Source: a virus. From it: 64,000 nt of DNA. Positions 7,206 through 47,941 of this stretch are shown one piece after another. Position numbers and translations under genes: made by a program. The stretch is from positions 44,308 through 108,307 of IMG/VR virus record IMGVR_UViG_3300016469_000277. One strand, given 5' to 3'. The stretch's first letter is position 1; each line of letters begins with the position of its first letter. Under the pieces are notes generated by a model, which saw nothing but the letters and a program-made list of their open reading frames with translations, was not told the DNA's origin and did no database searches.

Positions 7206-7511
7206 TTATTCTGATTTAAAGGTTTCGTTGTAGTATTCTTCTGGATTGGGGGATATTGATGTAGTTCTAAAATTAAATCCATCAATAGTACCTGAGTGGT
7301 AACTATTTTTGATTTGCTCCTTCTCCATTGCTTTGGCTTCATCAACCACATTCCAAAGTGTGCTTTGAGGTAGGGTATATGGAAAAGCAATAAATCCACG
7401 ATTGATTAATATTTGAATCAGTCTATCTACTGCTGTTTGTTTTTTATATAGTCCGTCTTTTGCATCATCGTTCATAATGTCTATAATTAGTTTCTTTTGT
7501 TGGTCTTTCAT
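7206..7511 (-). CDS. KQTAV-family small protein (likely start MKDQQ)
   Basis: Paralogous motif; ATG 4 nt after the TATATTTG box at 7516-7523. Confidence 0.65.
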   Translation of the reverse strand: MKDQQKKLIIDIMNDDAKDGLYKKQTAVDRLIQILINRGFIAFPYTLPQSTLWNVVDEAKAMEKEQIKNSYHSGTIDGFNFRTTSISPNPEEYYNETFKSE

Positions 7512-8413: not shown

Positions 8414-8665
8414 TTAATTTTGATAAATTGTTTGATAGTCTTTACTTGAATAAAGTTCTTCTGTTGGTTGTCCGTCGTTTTCTTCCTTACTCATAAGTTC
8501 AGTAGTCTCAAAAATAGGTTCCCAAGAGTACTCACTTACTTTTCCGTTTTCTACTAATTCTATAGCTAGTTTTTTAGCTTCTTCGTAATTTTCTGCTTCT
8601 ACTTCAAAGTTAGTTCTGTTCCAACTTGTTACTTTTTGGTCAAAAAAGAATTGAAATTGTTCCAT
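8414..8665 (-). CDS. Hypothetical protein
   Basis: ORF tiling. Confidence 0.6.
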   Translation of the reverse strand: MEQFQFFFDQKVTSWNRTNFEVEAENYEEAKKLAIELVENGKVSEYSWEPIFETTELMSKEENDGQPTEELYSSKDYQTIYQN

Positions 8666-9667: not shown

Positions 9668-10798
9668 TTAACTTTCCAAGTTATATTGTTCATTTTTACT
9701 CTTGTTTACATAATATTCATAGTTATTCTTTGTTCCTCCCATACTTTGTGCTTTAGGCAATTCTTCAAAATAAGGAACCCCTCTAGCAAAGTATAAGCCT
9801 AGTCTACCTGATAACCCCGATAGACGATCTTTTAAAAATCTAATACTGCGATAATTGTCTTGTAAGTAATTAATGTCGTAACCCTGATGTATTTCTATGT
9901 CGTATCTAAATGGTGCAAAAATTCCTATCACAACATCTGCTGAACGCTGAGTAGTCTTACAGTCTGCTAAGTCTGCTAGACTAGGTTCTAGTTTAGCTTC
10001 TACCAGTTCACCTTTATTAGTGAACATTTGAGATTCACCACTAGCAGCTTGCTGTTGAATAGGCACAAAAATTAATCCGTATCTTTTACAAAATATTTCC
10101 AGTCCGTAATGATCCACAAAAAACGCAAGAGTCTCTCTTAAGTCATGATAAACTCCTTGAATGGTTTCGGTATGAAGAAGAGAGATATGATCCACTACTA
10201 CAAAGTAATAAGTATCGTCTGCGTGCTTATAGTAAAGAGGATACTTCTTTTCATCTCTTTCCTCATAAACCATTTGGCCTTTGGTTGAATTATCGAAATA
10301 TCTTTCTACGTATTTTTTTATCCCGGTTGGATTAGAGATATGGTCAACGATTTCTACATGGTTCTCAAAGAACTTTAAGAACTCTGATTGACTTGCTTCT
10401 CTAATCCAACCTAAGATTTTGTCAGGGACTGTATAGTTACCAAAACTTAGCATCATTTCTGGTGTTACTATTTTTCCGTGAGTGTAATAAATACAGATAG
10501 ATATTGCTTCTAAGTAAAGTTTTTCTTTAGATTCCTCTAGAGCAAACCAAAATATCTTAATGTTAAAAGGATTCTTCCTCCACTTAATATAATTGGAGAC
10601 TATGATAAGCCATTTAGTAAATTTTGACTTTGCTATACCAGAGGAAGCAGTTATAAGATACATTTTACCTTTAACCCAACCTGGGTAATTATATTCGGTT
10701 GAAAGTCTATCTAGGTTCCAAGGAATAGAGTTATACTTGCCTTGTAAGCGATTATCTCTATTCTCTTCTATCTTTTTGTAGACTTCTTCAAACTGCAT
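9668..10798 (-). CDS. Replicative DnaB-like (SF4) helicase, crAss-type
   Basis: Walker A-like ASSGIAKS, FALEE, VVDHISLL, IQQQ, SADVV.G; likely start MQFEEV. Confidence 0.8.
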   Translation of the reverse strand: MQFEEVYKKIEENRDNRLQGKYNSIPWNLDRLSTEYNYPGWVKGKMYLITASSGIAKSKFTKWLIIVSNYIKWRKNPFNIKIFWFALEESKEKLYLEAISICIYYTHGKIVTPEMMLSFGNYTVPDKILGWIREASQSEFLKFFENHVEIVDHISNPTGIKKYVERYFDNSTKGQMVYEERDEKKYPLYYKHADDTYYFVVVDHISLLHTETIQGVYHDLRETLAFFVDHYGLEIFCKRYGLIFVPIQQQAASGESQMFTNKGELVEAKLEPSLADLADCKTTQRSADVVIGIFAPFRYDIEIHQGYDINYLQDNYRSIRFLKDRLSGLSGRLGLYFARGVPYFEELPKAQSMGGTKNNYEYYVNKSKNEQYNLES

Positions 10799-27618: not shown

Positions 27619-27725
27619 TGCGAGTGACAGGATTCGAACCTGTACGTAGGACCTACAATTAGATGATCGGCTATCCTACAGTAGTGATGATAATACTTGC
27701 GTCTAACCAATTCCGCCACACTCGC
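27619..27725 (-). ncRNA. tRNA-Leu-like RNA with non-canonical anticodon arm and enlarged variable arm (107 nt)
   Basis: Acceptor GCGAGTG/CACTCGC+A; D arm TGGCGGAATTGGTTAGACGC; T arm ACAGGTTCGAATCCTGT; anticodon stem AGTA/TACT with a 10-nt loop; variable stem GTAGGA/TCCTAC. Confidence 0.75.
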
Positions 27726-28680: not shown

Positions 28681-28812
28681 TAGTCAGGACAGGATTCGAA
28701 CCTGTATGATGTACTGCTTCACTTCCAAAACGGTTGATTCCCTTGTATGGACGCATCGACACATCTCCTATTTAATCTTATAGTAGCGTCTAACCAATTC
28801 CGCCACCTGACT
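28681..28812 (-). ncRNA. tRNA-Leu-like RNA with non-canonical anticodon arm and very large variable arm (132 nt)
   Basis: Acceptor AGTCAGG/CCTGACT+A; D and T arms identical to the 27619 element; anticodon stem CTAT/ATAG with an 8-nt loop; variable stem GATGT/ACATC enclosing about 45 nt. Confidence 0.75.
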
Positions 28813-29384: not shown

Positions 29385-29406
29385 GGTTTTTTAGTTTAAT
29401 TTTTAG

Positions 29407-29482
29407 TAGCCGGAAGGGGAATCGAACCACCTATCTCCAAGATGAAATCTTGTTGTCCTAAAATCCATTAGACGATCCGGCC
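29407..29482 (-). tRNA. tRNA-Glu(UUC), CCA not encoded
   Basis: Acceptor GGCCGGA/TCCGGCT, D arm GTCTAATGG..AGGAC, anticodon loop ATTTCAT, T loop TTCGATT; one mismatch each in the anticodon and T stems. Confidence 0.8.
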
Positions 29483-31118: not shown

Positions 31119-31143
31119 AGTTTATACTTTTTAGTTTAGTTTA

Positions 31144-31290
31144 AAATTTACCCCTCTGCACTCAGTTGTAACTCCAGGTTTATACCCTGAGATTCAGACA
31201 TTACTACGCTGCAGTCTTTCTCTGCAGATGCTCGTATTCTTATTACAACTGTCAGCCCTTGGGAAGCTGAAGTGGTGCGTTAAAAAATTT
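31144..31290 (-). ncRNA. Twister ribozyme (type P1) with extended P5; predicted cleavage at 31282/31281
   Basis: UAA-CGCA-CC...UCAGC-UUCCCAAGG-GCUGA; P5 CAGUUGUAA/UUACAACUG; AGUGCA-GAGGG; T1 CCC/GGG and T2 CC/GG; one C-A mismatch in P2. Confidence 0.75.
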
Positions 31291-31533
31291 GAACCTGTAA
31301 ATAATAAACAGCAAGGTGTGGACTTTTACCACAGTTAAGGAAGTTTGCAATTCCTTTCACAACCTCATGTTAGGCTTGTACTTCTTGTACACCCTCGCCA
31401 TTTATTTTTATTATCCCTCTGCACTCAGTTGTAATAGATAGCCAGTAGTACTACAGTATGGGTTACATACTGTCCATTGCTGATTCCAACGCAGCATTAC
31501 CTGAAGTTGGCGGTCACTATCTGTTACAACTGC

Positions 31534-32067
31534 TCACCCTTGGTGAGTGTGCTGAGGAGTGTAGTACCACTTATATCCATAAGCGGTTTTACTACTATCT
31601 TTAGCTGCTTTTGACAAGCAGGTAGTTTTATAATTTAATTCTCTTTCTATGTCTTTCATACAAGACCACTCTTTGATAAATAACCCATCAAGAGTGTATT
31701 GGTATAGTTTTTTAGCTTTACCATGTTTAGCTCCAGAAAACATTTGAGAAAGTTTTTTCTTAGTTTCTTCAGTATGCTTAGGTCTATTTCCTCCTTTATT
31801 GAGATTAAGACCTTTGTTTTCATCTTTCCAATAGCATTTATAAAAAGCAATCCAATATTGCTCTCTTTCATCCGCTAAAGTGTCAGAAACCTCTTCTATT
31901 ATCTCACACACATGATTCGCAAAACCATATTTTTTCAAAGAGTTATGTAATCTATATTGAGTTCTACAATGTAGAATTTTATATAAATTCATTCTCTTTT
32001 TATAATCCTTTGTTTGCCCAATATATACCTTTCCTGTTGGACTTGTGATTTTGTATATTGTTATCAT
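31534..32067 (-). CDS. GIY-YIG homing endonuclease with NUMOD3 and NUMOD1-like DNA-binding modules
   Basis: TIYKIT...VYIGQT...R...E...N; KHTEETKKKLS; YQYTLDG.FIKEW...TAYGYKW; ATG 4 nt after TATATTTG (32072-32079). Confidence 0.9.
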   Translation of the reverse strand: MITIYKITSPTGKVYIGQTKDYKKRMNLYKILHCRTQYRLHNSLKKYGFANHVCEIIEEVSDTLADEREQYWIAFYKCYWKDENKGLNLNKGGNRPKHTEETKKKLSQMFSGAKHGKAKKLYQYTLDGLFIKEWSCMKDIERELNYKTTCLSKAAKDSSKTAYGYKWYYTPQHTHQG

Positions 32068-32137
32068 AATACAAATATACAAAATAATGCACCATTTCCC
32101 AAGGGCTTAGGAAAATAAATTTCTTTATCACCCTTGG
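31534..32137 (-). mobile_element. Free-standing endonuclease insertion bounded by a 10-bp direct repeat CCAAGGGTGA
   Basis: tcacccttgg at 31534-31543 and 32128-32137; removing 594 bp restores a continuous twister. Confidence 0.75.
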
Positions 32138-32322
32138 GAAACTGATTAACTAACAATATACAACAGAGGATTTTACAACTGCTGTTATTATTCTTCATTA
32201 ATCAGTGTGGTTTCACATCTTGACCCATCAAGCAGGGCAGCGACAAGAAGTCTTTATATCCACGTGAGTTATGGTGCATTAATAAATTGCTATTTAACGG
32301 ATAGCTCCGACAGAATCAGCTT

Positions 32323-33484: not shown

Positions 33485-33543
33485 TTCTGTTTCGACCCTC
33501 AATTAGGTCATCATCAGCAGAGAGAATAACTCTCTGGACAGAA
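33485..33543 (-). ncRNA. Type III hammerhead ribozyme; cleavage after GUC at 33537/33536
   Basis: UUCUG-UC|CAGAGAG-UUAUU-CUCUCUG-CUGAUGA-U-GACC-UAAUUGAG-GGUC-GAAA-CAGAA. Confidence 0.9.
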
Positions 33544-33936
33544 ATTAAAACAAGCAGTAGATAAACTCTCGAAATATAGTGGCCACTATAAACGATACAA
33601 AGATATTTACAGATTTCTCAGGTCTGCTTTCTCTTTAACACAATTGAGAATGTGTTCGTACTTCTCTACTACTTGTTTTAATAGTATATATCAGGAATAT
33701 ACCAGCACCGCTGTTTTTGCTCGTAGTCTACAGCTTAACCACAAGCCCCTATCCTTTCCCCTATTTACTACATTCGGGAATACTTTCAGGTAATTTTTAA
33801 AGATTGCATGTTTTTGAATAACGCTTTTGTATTTGGTTAACTCATAAGCGTCGGATAGAAAGCAAAAGAGTTTGGTATGCAGTAATATACCATTCTCTCT
33901 CTTTACTACAAGGAATGCCTTCCATAGTAGTGCTTT

Positions 33937-33996
33937 TTTCTGTTTCGGGACTCGATTATCCCATCATCAGGTAGAACAAAAGTCCTACGACAGAAA
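33937..33996 (-). ncRNA. Type III hammerhead ribozyme; cleavage after GUC at 33989/33988
   Basis: UUUCUG-UC|GUAGGAC-UUUU-GUUCUAC-CUGAUGA-U-GGGA-UAAUCGAG-UCCC-GAAA-CAGAAA. Confidence 0.9.
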
Positions 33997-40206: not shown

Positions 40207-40521
40207 ATGGCAAAGAAAGAAATATACACCTCCGCAGAACTTGAGTGGTGCGAACAAAAACTTCTTGAATGGAAAGAATACATTGACCAAAATCCTATAT
40301 CTGGACTTCAAGACCGTATTTCCTATAAGACTACTGCAAATGGGGGATCTATTCCTATGGTTGTTTCTTCGGTTGAAGCTCAAATCAAATCTCTAAGAGA
40401 TACTATGAAAGAGTATCTTGTAATGCTCCAGCAAGTAGAGGCTATGAGAGAAAAAGAAGCTCAAAGGGCTCAAGCTCGTGGTAGCGCAGAGATTAACGGA
40501 ATGATGACTGATTATCAATAA
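40207..40521 (+). CDS. Protein coupled to TerL (terminase small subunit candidate)
   Basis: TAATG overlap with TerL; helical. Confidence 0.5.
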   Translation: MAKKEIYTSAELEWCEQKLLEWKEYIDQNPISGLQDRISYKTTANGGSIPMVVSSVEAQIKSLRDTMKEYLVMLQQVEAMREKEAQRAQARGSAEINGMMTDYQ

Positions 40522-42533
40522 TGAACTTACAATCGCCAGAATTACTAATTAACATGAAGTCTCTGCCTGATAAAGATTCAGCAGAGTATAAGTCTTTTTG
40601 GCAAAATGAAGTTAAAAAAATAAGAGAAGGAATAACAATCAATGGGTTCGAATTTTCCCCTTTTTTGTATTGGCATCTTAATCTATGGAGCATTTATGTT
40701 GATATTCTGGTTAATGGCCGAGTACTACGAAGATTAGATCGCCCTCAGTTTTGGGATAGTTTTATCTTAATTGACGAAACTATTAACAAGGCTGAAAATC
40801 ATCCAGACGGAAAAAAGGGAGTAGCTATTGTAGGCTCTCGTCGTCTTTCTAAGTCGGTAATCATTACTTCGAGAGTAGCACACCAAGCAGTAGCTTACCA
40901 GAATACCGAATGCTTAGTTTCAGGAGGTAATCAACCTGACATCAAGAACTTAACTGATTATCTAGACTTAGGACTTAGGAATCTTCCTGAGTACTTAAGA
41001 TTTTCTCGTGTAGAAGATGACTGGAAAAAGTGTGTTACTTTTGGATTTAAAGAAAAATCCACCAATAAACGCCACGAGTGGTCTAAGATTCATATAAGAA
41101 ACTTTGACGACGGAAATAATACAGAAGCAGCAGCAGGTCTTACTCTTTCAGGATTTCTTCTAGACGAAGGAGGTAAGTTTCCTTTTCTTTCGGCTTTAGC
41201 AGCGACTACTCCCTGTTTTGATTCACCTTACGGTTGGAGATGTTCTCCAATTATTACCGCTACCGGAGGTGATATGAAAAAAGCAGGAGATATGCAGGAA
41301 CTATTTAATAATCCAGAAGCTTATAACTTTCTCTCCGTTTCTGCTAAAGAGGATGGCACCTCTATTTCCTTATTTATACCGGGTACACAGTCGTTAAAGA
41401 TTCCTCGTGAACCCAAACTACTCTCACACTATTTAGACGTTTCAGAAGGCTCCGAATTAGACAATATGACTATTTGGGTAGCTGATGAGGAAAAAGGAAA
41501 AGAACTTATCTTAAAAGGCAGAGAACAAACTAGAAAATCTTCTGGTATGGAAGCTTACCTTAAAGAGGTAATGTACTATCCTTTGACTCCTGAAGAATGC
41601 TTTCTAGACGCTTCTGAGAATATTTTCCCTGTAGACTTACTTCAAGAACAACTTAATTTTCTTGAGTCAGGAGGTTATATCAAGGATGTAGATTACGTAG
41701 AACTTTACCGAGATATAAACGGAGTAGTTAAACACAAACCTACCGATCATAAACCAGTAAACAGTTACCCAGCTAAACCTTCAGAAGATAACTCAGGGGT
41801 AGTTCAGATATTTGAGTTTCCTATGGCAGATGCTCCTTATGGACTTTATACAGCAGGAACGGACCCATATAAACAATCACAAGCTCACTATTCTACTTCT
41901 TTGGGGGCTACTTACATATTTAAAAGAATCCACAACCTAACAGGGGAAAGATTTCAAAATATGCCAGTAGCTTGTTATGTAGGAAGACCAAAGAAAATCC
42001 AAACCTGGTACGAGGAGACTCGCAAACTTTTAGATTTTTACAACGCTAAAACTCTTTGCGAAAACATGGATATGGGGTTCATTGACCATTGTATTGAAAA
42101 GAAAGACCCTGACAAATACTTAGAAAGAACCCCTTCTATCTTAAGAGAAGAAATCCACGCAAACACTAGGGTAAATCGTACTTACGGAATCCATACCTCT
42201 ACAGGAATTAAAGATTATATCAATTCTTTAATTATAGAATACCTCCAAGAGACTATTGAAGTTAAAACTGACGAGGAAGGAAACCACAAACAAGTTCTAG
42301 GAGTATCTCGTATTTTAGACCCAATGCTAATTAAAGAACTACTCAAGTATACTCCAAGATCCAACGCTGACCGAAAAGATGCATTTGGTTACTCACTCTT
42401 AATGGCTAAGAATCTTAACCGGAGTGTAATTGTCTCCGATAGAGTAGACAACCGCTACGAATCTTATAAAAACATTGCAAAGAAAAGAAAAACTTTATTT
42501 TCCTCTTCAGGAAATCCCTTTAGATCTTATTAA
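40521..42533 (+). CDS. terL: Terminase large subunit
   Basis: SRRLSKS Walker A-like, LLDEGGK Walker B, TATGG, nuclease AGTDPY, N.DR.DA; directly upstream of the portal. Confidence 0.9.
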   Translation: MNLQSPELLINMKSLPDKDSAEYKSFWQNEVKKIREGITINGFEFSPFLYWHLNLWSIYVDILVNGRVLRRLDRPQFWDSFILIDETINKAENHPDGKKGVAIVGSRRLSKSVIITSRVAHQAVAYQNTECLVSGGNQPDIKNLTDYLDLGLRNLPEYLRFSRVEDDWKKCVTFGFKEKSTNKRHEWSKIHIRNFDDGNNTEAAAGLTLSGFLLDEGGKFPFLSALAATTPCFDSPYGWRCSPIITATGGDMKKAGDMQELFNNPEAYNFLSVSAKEDGTSISLFIPGTQSLKIPREPKLLSHYLDVSEGSELDNMTIWVADEEKGKELILKGREQTRKSSGMEAYLKEVMYYPLTPEECFLDASENIFPVDLLQEQLNFLESGGYIKDVDYVELYRDINGVVKHKPTDHKPVNSYPAKPSEDNSGVVQIFEFPMADAPYGLYTAGTDPYKQSQAHYSTSLGATYIFKRIHNLTGERFQNMPVACYVGRPKKIQTWYEETRKLLDFYNAKTLCENMDMGFIDHCIEKKDPDKYLERTPSILREEIHANTRVNRTYGIHTSTGIKDYINSLIIEYLQETIEVKTDEEGNHKQVLGVSRILDPMLIKELLKYTPRSNADRKDAFGYSLLMAKNLNRSVIVSDRVDNRYESYKNIAKKRKTLFSSSGNPFRSY

Positions 42534-42544
42534 AATAAAATAAA

Positions 42545-44998
42545 ATGATAATAGAAGCATACCTCAATCTACAAAAGAATACAACTGACCTTTATGGTTA
42601 TCCAGACCAGTTCACTACCATGAAGGAAAAGGAGACAGGAGATTGGATTAAAAAGAACCTAGACTATTTTGCTGGTGTAGCGTATTCTAAGTATCGTCAA
42701 AATGAGGCATTCCGCAAAAACTATAAATTGTTAAACGGAGAGTTTGACTTTGCGGATTATTTTGTTATTCCTGAAACTAAGATGATTTTAGATTATCTTA
42801 AAGATGTTCCAGACCAAGAACAAGATATTCCCAAACATCTCAAACATTATCCTATTCTTAATCCTCCGATTAATACTCTTTTGGGCGAACTTACAAAGAG
42901 GCCTCATAAGTACGCAGCTAAAGCTGTAGATGATATATCTATGGAGGAAAATATTGATTTCAGAACTAACTTGATTAAAGAGTTTGTAATTAATCAACTT
43001 AGAATGAAAACTCAAGGTATGCCCCCCGAACAACAAGAAGAAGTAATAGCTAAAGAAATCCAAAGCAAAGTTATGAATTACACAACTATTGCTGAGGAAT
43101 GGGCCAATAAAGTACTAGGGGCTTTAAAGCATCATTTTGATTTTCGTCATAAGTCGTTCATGGCGTTTCGGGATTTACTAGTTACAGGAAGAGAATACCA
43201 TCACTTTTACCCTGATAACTCTCGTTTAGGTTTTACTTATCGTGTAGAAAACCCAGCTAATGTATGGACTCTCAATTACAGAAACGCAATTACTACTAAA
43301 GATTGTTGGGCTGGAGGTACTCTTGAAGTGCTTACTTTTGCTGAGATTATCAATCGTTATAAGTTAACCGACGAAGAAATGGAACACTTGAAGACTTACT
43401 CTCTTCAAGGTCTTCGTAATAACGAATACTCTGCTTTTTCCCCTGCTATGCCAAATCCTAACTACGATCCTATTTGGCAGTTAACTTTTGAATCAGCAGA
43501 TCTTTCTATTGACGGAATTACTCCTAATGCTTATGCTTTCTCAAATCAGTTTAGTTATACAGTAGTAACTGCTTACTGGGAAAGCCAAAGACCTGTTTAT
43601 AAAAGAACTTATGTAGACCAGTCAGGTTACGAGCAAACTGATTTTGTAAACGAACAATACAAACTATGTAAAGACTGTGGAGATGTTTCTCTTGAAAAGA
43701 CTTGGGAGAATATCTGGATGAAAGGAATTAAAATAGGAGCTAACATTTATTTCTGTGAACCACTAGAGTATGTAAGCTGTATGCCTATTGTGGGAATTGT
43801 GAATACTTTCAGAAATACCCAGGGTAAATCACTTCTTTCTATGATGAAGCCCTACCAAGTTCTTTATAATATCTGTTTGAATCAGTTGTGGGAGGCACTT
43901 GAAAAAGATTTAGGGGTACAGGCAATCATTGATATGAAAGTAATCCCCAACAATGATGATGCAGATGCTATTGACCAATTTAAAACTGTAGCAAAAGAAA
44001 CTGGTTTCCTAGTAATTGACACTTCTGTTGAGAATACAGGAGGCCCTGTTCAGTTTAACCAAATGACTAGAACAGACCTAAGCCAACAGACTTATATTAG
44101 TTCTCGTATTCAATTAGCTGAATGGGCTAGAAACCAAGCTTGGGAACTTGTAGGTATAACACGTCAACGTACTGGGTCTGTACTTGCTACAGAAACCGCA
44201 ACAGGGACTCAAACAGCTATGGCGCAGTCTTTTGCTCAAACAGAACCATGGTTTCATTTTCATGATGTAATTCTTAAAGATGTGTATCAAATGATTCTAG
44301 ATATAACTCAGTATATAGAATTACAAAAACCAGATTCTACTCTAAATTATCTTAACAACGAACTTGAGTCTGTTTTTTTAAGAGTCACTAGAGATGAGTT
44401 ACTTAGAGATCTTCAAGTTTATGTAACTTCTTACGCAGAAGATAGAGATACAATTGAAAAGCTTCGTTCTCTTATGCAACCTGCTATGCAGAATGGTGCA
44501 GACTTAGCTGATATAGCAGATATGTTAACTGCTGAATCTGAAAGGGGTCTTCGTGAAATTTTACAAAAAGTTCAACAAAGAAACCAACAAGCCAGAGAAC
44601 AACAACAACAACTTGAACAACAAAAGCTTCAACAAGCTCAAGAGCAATTCCAAGCCAATCTACAAGCACAACAAGAAAAAGAGGTGAGAGAGATGCAGAA
44701 TGAAAACATGAACAAACAGCTTGATAGGGAAAATCGTCTCCAAATAGAAGAACTAAGAGGTATAGCAGCAGAAGGAAGTTACTCTCCTACTACGGATACT
44801 ACAGAGCTTTTAACTGAACAAACTAAGGCTGCAATGGAACGATCTAAGCTTGAATTTGAAAAACTTGTTAAACAAAGAGAACTTGCTCAAAACGACAGAA
44901 AACTAAACATAGAAGAAAAGAAAGCGCAAGATGCTTTGGATATAGCCAAACTTAGAGATAAAGGCACTTTGAACCCAAAGCCAAAAAATAAGAAGTAA
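42545..44998 (+). CDS. Portal protein (crAss-type)
   Basis: 817 aa, follows TerL; HYPI..P.I..L.GE, ELVGITRQR.G, C-terminal Q-rich coiled coil. Confidence 0.85.
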   Translation: MIIEAYLNLQKNTTDLYGYPDQFTTMKEKETGDWIKKNLDYFAGVAYSKYRQNEAFRKNYKLLNGEFDFADYFVIPETKMILDYLKDVPDQEQDIPKHLKHYPILNPPINTLLGELTKRPHKYAAKAVDDISMEENIDFRTNLIKEFVINQLRMKTQGMPPEQQEEVIAKEIQSKVMNYTTIAEEWANKVLGALKHHFDFRHKSFMAFRDLLVTGREYHHFYPDNSRLGFTYRVENPANVWTLNYRNAITTKDCWAGGTLEVLTFAEIINRYKLTDEEMEHLKTYSLQGLRNNEYSAFSPAMPNPNYDPIWQLTFESADLSIDGITPNAYAFSNQFSYTVVTAYWESQRPVYKRTYVDQSGYEQTDFVNEQYKLCKDCGDVSLEKTWENIWMKGIKIGANIYFCEPLEYVSCMPIVGIVNTFRNTQGKSLLSMMKPYQVLYNICLNQLWEALEKDLGVQAIIDMKVIPNNDDADAIDQFKTVAKETGFLVIDTSVENTGGPVQFNQMTRTDLSQQTYISSRIQLAEWARNQAWELVGITRQRTGSVLATETATGTQTAMAQSFAQTEPWFHFHDVILKDVYQMILDITQYIELQKPDSTLNYLNNELESVFLRVTRDELLRDLQVYVTSYAEDRDTIEKLRSLMQPAMQNGADLADIADMLTAESERGLREILQKVQQRNQQAREQQQQLEQQKLQQAQEQFQANLQAQQEKEVREMQNENMNKQLDRENRLQIEELRGIAAEGSYSPTTDTTELLTEQTKAAMERSKLEFEKLVKQRELAQNDRKLNIEEKKAQDALDIAKLRDKGTLNPKPKNKK

Positions 44999-46375: not shown

Positions 46376-47941
46376 ATGCCAAACATGAACATCCCACGCG
46401 TCAATGGCCGAATAGTCGCTAACGCTGGAACTGCTAGTTCTTACTATCAGAAGAATAAACTTGGAAAGTTTACTGATAAGAACTTTATTGAAACAATGCT
46501 TCGTACTTCCCCCGATCAGTACGACAAAGCTATGATTCGTCTTTTCACTGACACCCGTCTTTACTCAAACGACTTTGTTGATTTGGTGATGAACTCAGGT
46601 GCTCCTTTCGTTTCTAACGATCCTAACGGTGTTTTTACCTACAAGATTAAGAAAAGGGCTGAGCTTCCTAAAATCATGATTAACTTGGCTGACACCACTC
46701 CTAAGCCTGGTGTTGACGGTCAAACTTTTGAGTTGGTATTTGACAAAGAAATGTTCGCTGTTAATGATGTGATCTCTGCTCATCGTCGTGAACAGGAAGT
46801 TTTGATTCAGATTGTTTCTGATTTCGAACCTTATCAGAACTTCTTCAAATACACTTGTAAAGCTGTAGGTGAATCTACTGACTACGTTCACCAGCGTTTC
46901 TTGAGTGTTGGTACCGAATACTTCAAAATCGGTATGTTGTCAGGCGAATACACTACCAGCTGGTCTAGCCTTGGTGCTATTGACGGTAGCTTGGAAGTTG
47001 TAAACGACGTATTGCAACAGTACGGTATCGAACATACTATCACCGATTGGGCTGACGCTACCAAAATTGGTGTTAAGTATGACGCTGCTGGTAAGCCTAT
47101 CAACGACATCACTTACTACTCTATCGCTGAAATTGACATCAATGGCCAACCTATCAACGTAACAGTTGGTTGGGAACCTACCGTATCTAAATTGATGCGT
47201 ATGGAAATGATTCGCATGAAAGCTAACACTTTGATGTGGGGTCGTAAAGGTAACGGTGTAGATGAAAAAGGTCGTCCTGTACGTGCTAAAGCTGGTTTGT
47301 GGCAGCAATTGCACCTTGGTAACGTAATTTATTACGACAAAGGTCAATTCTCAATCAACTTGCTTCGTTCTGCAGTAGGTGACTTGTTCTACAACCGTGT
47401 ACGTATCGAAGATCGTCACGTTAAAATCTACACAAACCGTTCTGGTATGGAATTGGCTGCTACCGCTATGAAGAAAGACTTCAATGCTTCTGGCTTCACA
47501 GTGTTGGCTTCTGATTTCTTGGATAGCAAAGCTAACGGAGCAAACGGTAAAGACCGTCGCTTGAACCAGGGTTATGCTTTCCAATTCGACCACTTTATGA
47601 CAGTTGAAACTGGCTTGGTTGAATTCAAAGAACTCGAACAGTTGAACGAACATGCTACTTTCTTGGAACTTGGTCCTAACAAGAAAACTCCTCCGATCTA
47701 TATTATCCTTGATATTTCTGGCGAAGGTGGATCAAACATCCGCGAATGTAAGCTTGGCACTCGTCCTAACATGATGTACAAATACATTCCTGGTGCTACA
47801 GATTCTAGCATTGCTAAAATGTTTGGAAACTTGGCTACCTCGAAAGATCCGTATGATACTATCTTGATGAAAGACTGGGCTGGTATCTTCTTGGAAGATC
47901 CTACCAGGACTATCCTCATCAAAGAATATCCTCAGATCTAA
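46376..47941 (+). CDS. Major capsid protein (crAss-type)
   Basis: 521 aa, strong high-expression codon bias, synteny, C-terminal GIFLEDPTR. Confidence 0.85.
   Translation: MPNMNIPRVNGRIVANAGTASSYYQKNKLGKFTDKNFIETMLRTSPDQYDKAMIRLFTDTRLYSNDFVDLVMNSGAPFVSNDPNGVFTYKIKKRAELPKIMINLADTTPKPGVDGQTFELVFDKEMFAVNDVISAHRREQEVLIQIVSDFEPYQNFFKYTCKAVGESTDYVHQRFLSVGTEYFKIGMLSGEYTTSWSSLGAIDGSLEVVNDVLQQYGIEHTITDWADATKIGVKYDAAGKPINDITYYSIAEIDINGQPINVTVGWEPTVSKLMRMEMIRMKANTLMWGRKGNGVDEKGRPVRAKAGLWQQLHLGNVIYYDKGQFSINLLRSAVGDLFYNRVRIEDRHVKIYTNRSGMELAATAMKKDFNASGFTVLASDFLDSKANGANGKDRRLNQGYAFQFDHFMTVETGLVEFKELEQLNEHATFLELGPNKKTPPIYIILDISGEGGSNIRECKLGTRPNMMYKYIPGATDSSIAKMFGNLATSKDPYDTILMKDWAGIFLEDPTRTILIKEYPQI

Follow-up and report, generated by a model that had tools for sequence, protein, structure and literature searches.

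The window analysed here is a 64,000-nucleotide stretch of an IMG/VR virus record (CheckV completeness 94%). On its plus strand it encodes a large terminase, a portal, a major head protein and a very long virion protein (Table 1). Its terminase shares 42% identity with the one from Leptolyngbya phage Lbo-JY46 and 27–29% with the terminases of Cellulophaga, Flavobacterium, Bacteroides and crAss-like phages, and these similarities place the phage in that broad group. A scan of a genome-contig collection, meant to infer the host, returned four MAG contigs from mixed phyla and was uninformative. Diverging from the packaging module is a leftward arm, and near its start lies a cassette in which two hammerhead ribozymes, HH-A and HH-B, flank a structured RNA; the RNA has the same position relative to the packaging module in the related contigs L031, L020 and L032. 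The cassette is preceded and followed by small ORFs, and PHROGs and Pfam searches of these neighbouring ORFs gave nothing informative. The stop codon of the upstream ORF falls in the loop of the hairpin GGGAG-CUUAGU-CUCCC, which is kept with small changes in L031. Among cultured phages, blastn of a 3-kb stretch against 50,697 records found no match, and Lbo-JY46, the nearest cultured phage by terminase, had no match to our hammerhead and RNA models.

Table 1 Features of the locus and its surroundings, in window coordinates.
Feature	Position	Strand	Remarks
Large terminase	40521–42533	plus	
Portal	42545–44998	plus	
Major head protein	46376–47941	plus	
Virion protein, 1772 aa	56699–62017	plus	
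Second GIY-YIG domain ORF, 173 aa	36651–37172	plus	rightward arm, 2.7 kb from the cassette
Motif copy 1	34808–34792	minus	~40 nt before an ATG; hairpin after the motif
Upstream small ORF, 109 aa	34332–34003	minus	no family match
Hairpin GGGAG-CUUAGU-CUCCC	34012–33997	minus	directly before HH-A; inside the block 90% identical to L031
HH-A, type III hammerhead	33996–33937	minus	predicted cleavage after C33989; sequence, descriptor scan, covariance model
Predicted excised RNA, 452 nt	33988–33537	minus	predicted 5′-OH and 2′,3′-cyclic phosphate
Conserved structured non-coding RNA	33932–33545	minus	alignments A3, A5 and A6; RNAalifold
3′ domain of the non-coding RNA, multi-way junction	33686–33545	minus	covariance model R2, covariation
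HH-B, type III hammerhead	33544–33485	minus	predicted cleavage after C33537; sequence, descriptor scan, covariance model
Motif copy 2	33427–33411	minus	~22 nt before an ATG; hairpin after the motif
Downstream small ORF, 92 aa from ATG	33388–33110	minus	no family match; hairpins ahead
Second twister-like element, apparently split	31410–32285	minus	start ~32282, end ~31432–31411
GIY-YIG homing endonuclease ORF	31534–32082		between the halves of the split element
Twister-like ribozyme	31143–31290	minus	
tRNA-Glu	29406–29482		ARAGORN
tRNA-model match	28681–28812	minus	34 bits
tRNA-model match	27619–27725	minus	40 bits

The two hammerheads and their family

The sequence-only reading of this DNA had placed two co-oriented type III hammerheads at the locus, and both were confirmed on the minus strand by reading of the sequence and by a genome-wide descriptor scan. 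HH-A has UUUCUGUC before the predicted cut and GUAGGAC-UUUU-GUUCUAC-CUGAUGA-U-GGGAU-AAUCGA-GUCCC-GAAA-CAGAAA after it; HH-B has the same UUUCUGUC, followed by CAGAGAG-UUAUU-CUCUCUG-CUGAUGA-U-GACCU-AAUUGA-GGGUC-GAAA-CAGAA. The traits listed in that reading are all visible here: a stem III common to the two copies, one additional U behind CUGAUGA, UAAUYGAG as loop II, and stems I and II that differ between the copies. The cleavage sites it gave (33989/33988 and 33537/33536, releasing 452 nt) agree with the sequence as well. As the catalytic core we looked for C3-U4-G5-A6-N7-G8-A9, G12-A13-A14, an A15.1-U16.1 pair and the cleavage-site nucleotide H17. Both copies form a three-way junction with loop-capped stems I and II and an open stem III, with GUC as the cleavage triplet, and the core elements CUGAUGA, GAAA and GUC are invariant in them and in the family described below, with one extra U between A9 and stem II. 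The descriptor scan found no other candidate on either strand of the whole 108,307-bp genome, for which 100 first-order Markov simulations gave a mean chance expectation of 0.01 matches per genome. Folded in isolation, HH-B has the hammerhead shape as its minimum-energy structure; the hammerhead fold of HH-A lies 0.3 kcal/mol above the minimum, with a competing fold of about equal energy. Covariance model R1 scored HH-A at 80.0 bits (E = 4e-19) and HH-B at 76.4 bits. The Rfam hammerhead models reported neither copy at the gathering score in the window or at E ≤ 10 in the locus, and no hammerhead family was reported over six related loci at E ≤ 1, so membership of the class rests on our own descriptor and covariance model. 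We take HH-A and HH-B to be genuine hammerheads and not chance matches, and both look catalytically complete. The hammerhead core itself, 33 nt long, is the only repeat.

Two pattern scans of IMG/VR detected the same hammerhead variant in 31 contigs, and this whole hammerhead lineage escapes the Rfam models. Its marks are the extra U after CUGAUGA (A in L041), the loop II UAAUYGAG and a U-rich loop I of four nucleotides. The first pattern fixed the CAGAA of stem III and the second, relaxed pattern left stem III free; an apparently invariant inner 4 bp of stem III was rejected as an artefact of the fixed pattern, because the relaxed one shows stem III covarying (UAUUGU/ACAAUA, UAGAGU/ACUCUA and UAAUGU/ACAUUA; seen in L029, L030, L032 and L034). 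Across 21 distinct sequences, 95% of cells are paired in the family structure, compared with 36–51% in slid controls, and 11 of the 19 pairs have changed on both sides (stem I, 6/7; stem II, 3/5). Complete or near-complete relatives of 109–156 kb carry one or two family hammerheads per genome, so these ribozymes do not serve to punctuate genes in general. In the majority of the 31 contigs the hammerhead ends 15–35 nt ahead of the ATG of a small ORF, and the ORFs in this position have no homology among them.

Three further observations concern this family. The leaders between hammerhead and ATG (L001–L034, 60–95 nt after the hammerhead start) are A-rich and without a Shine–Dalgarno sequence, which fits hosts such as Bacteroidota or cyanobacteria. 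Contig L029 carries two family hammerheads 1047 nt apart (7376–7435 and 8423–8482, plus strand) with two or three small ORFs between them; the unusual stem III AUAGAGUC/GAAACUCUA is common to the pair, and stems I and II differ. In L039 (7891–7950, plus strand) and L040 (393–452, minus strand), the hammerhead behind the non-coding RNA has a CCGAUGA core (U4 to C) and is possibly a weakened or inactive copy.

A conserved structured RNA between the hammerheads

The excised RNA would consist of the 52-nt body of HH-A and ~400 nt of non-coding RNA. The earlier proposal that the hammerheads bracket a structured RNA with no ORF of 60 aa or more is supported: homologue alignments of this cargo contain neither a conserved ORF nor a 3-periodicity of mismatches, and folding and covariation both point to structure. 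The 452-nt RNA has a minimum free energy of −125.8 kcal/mol (z-score −5.3 versus shuffles). The non-coding RNA starts at its 5′ side with a hairpin whose loop is GGCAU; a middle part that varies comes next, then a central domain that is conserved, and last the 3′ domain, closed by a helix of 15–17 bp, which stops 1–3 nt short of the stem III strand of HH-B. With L035–L045, which were added by one metagenome scan, the homologue set holds 13 sequences. On these, RNAalifold predicts 73 pairs, of which 43 show compensatory changes, with far lower values in shuffled and slid controls. Compensatory changes occur in 24 of the 40 pairs of the 3′ domain, where 95% of cells are paired compared with 34–54% when the partners are slid, a result reached by none of 500 shuffles. 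Covariance model R2 scored the 3′ domain at 138.5 bits on the minus strand versus 33.5 bits on the plus strand, and the G-U pairs of the non-coding RNA lie on the hammerhead strand. This strand-specific signal, together with the G-U pairs, argues for a structure in RNA over one in duplex DNA.

Model R2 finds one copy per contig, and its search of the rest of the genome and of the other hammerhead loci revealed no paralogues. No Rfam family matched the non-coding RNA in the window at the gathering score, in the locus at E ≤ 10 or in six related loci at E ≤ 1. As candidate identities we considered RNase P RNA, tmRNA, a group I intron and the sarcin–ricin motif (AGUACGA in common), and dropped them with no model match or matching topology. 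We conclude from the alignments that the cargo is a conserved structured RNA and not a gene, and, on the absence of any Rfam match, that it is a new, uncatalogued phage RNA family.

The sequence-only reading had also singled out a 27-aa candidate. The ORF is indeed present at 33924, its ATG lying 72 nt after the start of HH-A, the spacing at which ORFs follow hammerheads in other loci. Its frame, however, is not conserved: L002 has ATA in place of the start codon, and in L009 and L020 the frame is interrupted. Substitutions in the segment are without codon periodicity, and the codons of the ORF form a covarying hairpin. We therefore give almost no credence to a micro-protein encoded in the segment.

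Other contigs can be aligned with the entire unit that begins with HH-A and finishes with HH-B, and similarity breaks off at the edges of the hammerheads or close to them. Identity to the window is 90% in L031 (34013–33486) and ~75% in L002/L016 and L009; over part of the unit it is 75% in L020 (3′ 340 nt) and 70% in L032/L033 (3′ 280 nt). The RNA is thus 70–90% identical in nucleotides, whereas the large terminases of the same phages are 25–29% identical in protein. Conservation so far above that of the terminase indicates that the non-coding RNA probably does something important for its phage group. The proteins neighbouring the cassette in L031, L020 and L032 are at most 35% identical or unrelated to those of the window, and since one locus and the next have no homology in their flanking genes, the RNA does not act as the cis-leader of any single gene. 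The match to L031, whose terminase is 29% identical to that of the window phage, takes in loops that vary in all other homologues, which suggests that, in addition to being under strong selection, the cassette was recently exchanged as a whole between distant phages.

That match, which spans hypervariable loops between phages with divergent terminases and non-homologous neighbours, would also suit a selfish mobile element, either retrozyme-like and moving through an RNA intermediate or a passenger of gene conversion driven by homing endonucleases; two genes for GIY-YIG endonucleases are found at distances of 1.5 and 2.7 kb. We regard a mobile element as highly improbable, however, because the cassette is present as a single copy per genome and occupies the same syntenic place in the phages compared (the window, L031, L020 and L032), the phage yielded no RVT_1 match to a reverse transcriptase, and the strong structural constraint across the 13 homologues implies a function for the phage.

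The structural data bear equally on whether the hammerheads serve only the flanking messages, trimming or stabilising the mRNAs of small genes, with the segment between them acting in cis or at the DNA level (for instance as a promoter region, as a signal for packaging or replication, or as the boundary of a cassette or of recombination). A strand-specific signal that includes G-U pairs, and compensatory changes in 43 of 73 pairs, would be hard to reconcile with such a role. The position of the hammerheads just ahead of small non-homologous ORFs in most of the 31 contigs is in line with it, as are the homology blocks that end at hammerhead edges and the adjoining packaging module; yet the predicted cuts would part the segment from both neighbour genes, these genes differ between loci, and each genome has just one or two family hammerheads. 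We consider this explanation quite improbable.

Ribozymes at the two edges in related phages

The 3′ edge of the non-coding RNA is marked by a hammerhead in the window, L031, L002/L016, L009/L043, L020/L038/L044, L032/L033/L042 and L036, by a hammerhead with the U4C core change in L039/L040, and by a twister-like ribozyme in L037, L041 and L045; L035 has only a long terminator-like hairpin that includes a run of U. The 5′ edge carries a hammerhead in the window, L031, L002/L016 and L036 (five contigs, four distinct loci) and additionally in L041. The front ribozyme of L045 is instead a match to twister-P1. All of these front ribozymes lie within ~10 nt of the first conserved hairpin. The front hammerhead of L009 is eroded, its core lost and remnants of stem II left, and no front ribozyme is present in L020/L038, L032, L039 or L035. 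About half of the distinct homologues have an eroded front ribozyme or none at all, with the RNA and the 3′ ribozyme intact.

The front element of L045 matches twister-P1 at 55.7 bits (E = 8e-11), which is below the Rfam gathering score of 67.2. The rear elements of L037, L041 and L045 start with UUAAUGCA and end with UGCAGAKGG, blocks that they have in common with this twister-P1 match, and their P2, P4 and P5 covary. They had no Rfam match, probably owing to a long insert in P5, and since Rfam does not recognise them we name them twister-like, on the shared core sequence and the covarying P2, P4 and P5 only.

The flanking ribozymes are thus interchangeable in class around a cargo that is kept, and L041 combines both classes, with a hammerhead in front and a twister-like ribozyme at the 3′ edge. 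In type III hammerheads, as in P1 twisters, the cut falls close to the 5′ edge of the ribozyme itself, so that the RNA upstream would receive a clean 3′ end and the ribozyme body would ride on the downstream product. Because the 3′ edge is kept across ribozyme classes and the front is optional, we conclude from the comparison of loci that the conserved requirement is a precise 3′ end of the RNA, most often one that a ribozyme would make.

Twister-like elements also occur at other positions. In L031, one lies within ~10 nt after HH-B (9828–9980, plus strand), placing two ribozyme classes back to back. The window itself contains another at 31143–31290, reading UUUUUUAACGCACC ... UUCCCAAGG ... 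a long P5 hairpin with an insert ... AGUGCAGAGGGGUAAA. It is homologous to the elements after the non-coding RNA in L037, L041 and L045 and after HH-B in L031, and its P2, P4 and P5 covary; a short-stretch scan gave no Rfam match to it. A second twister-like element nearby is apparently split, starting with UUAAUGCACCAUAAC and ending with ACAACUGAGUGCAGAGGGAUAA, and its halves are ~850 nt apart with the ORF of a GIY-YIG homing endonuclease between them.

Proposed transcript processing and possible fates of the excised RNA

We think it probable that the region is a ribozyme-cut processing cassette that yields a stable non-coding RNA of the phage, linear for the most part. The transcript, which runs leftward and is probably early, would pass through the 109-aa gene, HH-A, the ~400-nt structured RNA, HH-B and the 92-aa gene, and both hammerheads would cut at their own 5′ edges in vivo during transcription. 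The HH-B cut would create the precise 3′ end of the RNA, a 2′,3′-cyclic phosphate eight nucleotides past the long closing helix, and the HH-B body would stay on the downstream RNA. The HH-A cut would free the RNA from the upstream message, with the body of HH-A remaining as a folded, 5′-OH-bearing 5′ cap. The product would be a stable, mostly linear RNA, presumably acting in trans. For the neighbours, the first cut would leave the upstream mRNA with a terminal hairpin, and the second would part the RNA of the downstream gene from the non-coding RNA. On the minus strand, the motif AATGCCCC(C/T)TTGTTGGT with a hairpin after it stands before two ATGs (Table 1), one copy (AATGCCCCTTTGTTGGT) lying between HH-B and the 92-aa gene; a phage promoter and an RNA element are both conceivable roles for it. 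This promoter-like motif between HH-B and the next gene makes the role of HH-B for the downstream mRNA uncertain.

Hammerhead cleavage leaves a 5′-OH and a 2′,3′-cyclic phosphate. On the ends predicted here, circularisation through the shared stem III, which the sequence-only reading had put forward, is chemically possible; it is not a conserved feature of the relatives. After double cleavage, the 3′ tail UUUCUGUC>p would pair with ACAGAAA of HH-A, and the rebuilt nicked hammerhead would be sealed by self-ligation or by a host RtcB-type ligase, much as happens in engineered twister/RtcB systems and in the circles of retrozymes, giving a junction that reads ...UAAUUUCUGUC joined to GUAGGACUUUUG.... 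We judge it rather unlikely that such a covalently closed circle is the functional species. Stem III of HH-A and HH-B is identical over 7 bp in the window phage, and it is this very helix that closes the 452-nt RNA in its minimum-energy fold, but for the tails of L002, L036 and L031 the match is limited to the 4 bp CUGU/ACAG found across the family, the perfect 7-bp shared stem being specific to the window phage. The front and rear twisters of L045 likewise have near-identical P1 5′ strands (AAAUU and AAAAUU), yet L041 mixes a hammerhead with a twister-like element, from which no single ribozyme can be rebuilt. The two L029 hammerheads keep the unusual AUAGAGUC/GAAACUCUA stem III in common despite different stems I and II, but they bracket ordinary ORFs. 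The erosion or loss of the front ribozyme in about half of the distinct homologues, with the RNA and 3′ ribozyme intact, also speaks against a circle. Our search of the phage found no RtcB or RNA ligase gene; the RNA_lig_T4_1 search, which was blank in every control genome too, is uninformative by itself. A search for circular products of clustered phage hammerheads also came up empty (Perreault et al., PMC3088659). The fuller proposal, in which the 452-nt RNA is excised, its ends are held in a rebuilt hammerhead and closure by self-ligation or host RtcB turns it into an exonuclease-proof effector, we consider unlikely; if true, it would parallel in nature the twister/RtcB systems engineered to make circular RNA, and no earlier case would exist of a phage genome that encodes a circle of this kind.

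The same reading had likened the locus to retrozymes and viroid-like circles. Retrozymes are repetitive genomic elements with hammerhead-bearing direct repeats, a primer-binding site and a polypurine tract, and are mobilised by reverse transcriptase; viroid-like and satellite RNAs are RNA-only replicons, usually with ribozymes in both polarities and no DNA copy. The window hammerheads have the topology, core and GUC triplet of the type III hammerheads of viroids, satellites and plant retrozymes, and here too a pair of copies in the same sense could set free an RNA of unit length whose ends can be ligated. The analogy fails nonetheless, because the cassette is a DNA-encoded, single-copy element at a syntenic locus of a dsDNA phage contig, with ribozymes in one polarity, no long terminal repeats and no reverse transcriptase. 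The hammerheads themselves also differ, in the extra U or A after A9 and in not being reported by Rfam.

The proposed release of a mainly linear RNA by a processing cassette can be compared with other known systems. GOLLD and ROOL are large, ornate conserved RNAs carried by phages and prophages, often in RNA-rich regions near tRNA genes. The RNA described here is similarly ornate, conserved and phage-carried, but is smaller and matches no Rfam family; neither GOLLD nor ROOL is known to have ends defined by ribozymes. The cutting of phage polycistronic RNAs by clustered hammerheads was described in 2011, with all sites cleaved in vitro in the examples; circular products were raised as an idea and none were detected (Perreault et al. 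2011, PMC3088659). As in those clusters, at least two same-sense hammerheads in a phage polycistronic unit flank a short block, and L029, with ORFs between its two hammerheads, is a case of that kind. The earlier clusters enclose cargo genes of varying identity, whereas the cargo of the window cassette is a conserved, structured, ORF-less RNA family that stays in relatives while the edge ribozymes are swapped or lost. Theta ribozymes, a minimal HDV-like class, directly adjoin phage tRNAs at their 3′ ends (PMC10879173) and are, by analogy, the nearest functional counterpart, since in both systems the predicted cut would set the 3′ end of a phage structured RNA without host RNases. Theta ribozymes are HDV-like and act on tRNA, whereas here a hammerhead or twister-like ribozyme adjoins an uncatalogued RNA of ~400 nt, often with a second ribozyme at the 5′ side.

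New here are the uncatalogued conserved cargo RNA, the class-swapping ribozymes around it and a hammerhead lineage missed by Rfam. The roles that self-cleaving ribozymes play in bacteria and in phages continue to be described as largely elusive (PMC6765202). The cargo points to one such role, in which hammerhead and twister-type ribozymes would be used interchangeably to cut a conserved RNA from a phage transcript and, above all, to give it an exact 3′ end; the question of what these ribozymes do thereby becomes testable on a defined substrate.

Elsewhere in the window, the sole tRNA call by ARAGORN is a tRNA-Glu. Two matches to a tRNA model on the minus strand (Table 1) have identical D and T arms and carry insertions of 46 and 68 nt in the middle of the molecule.
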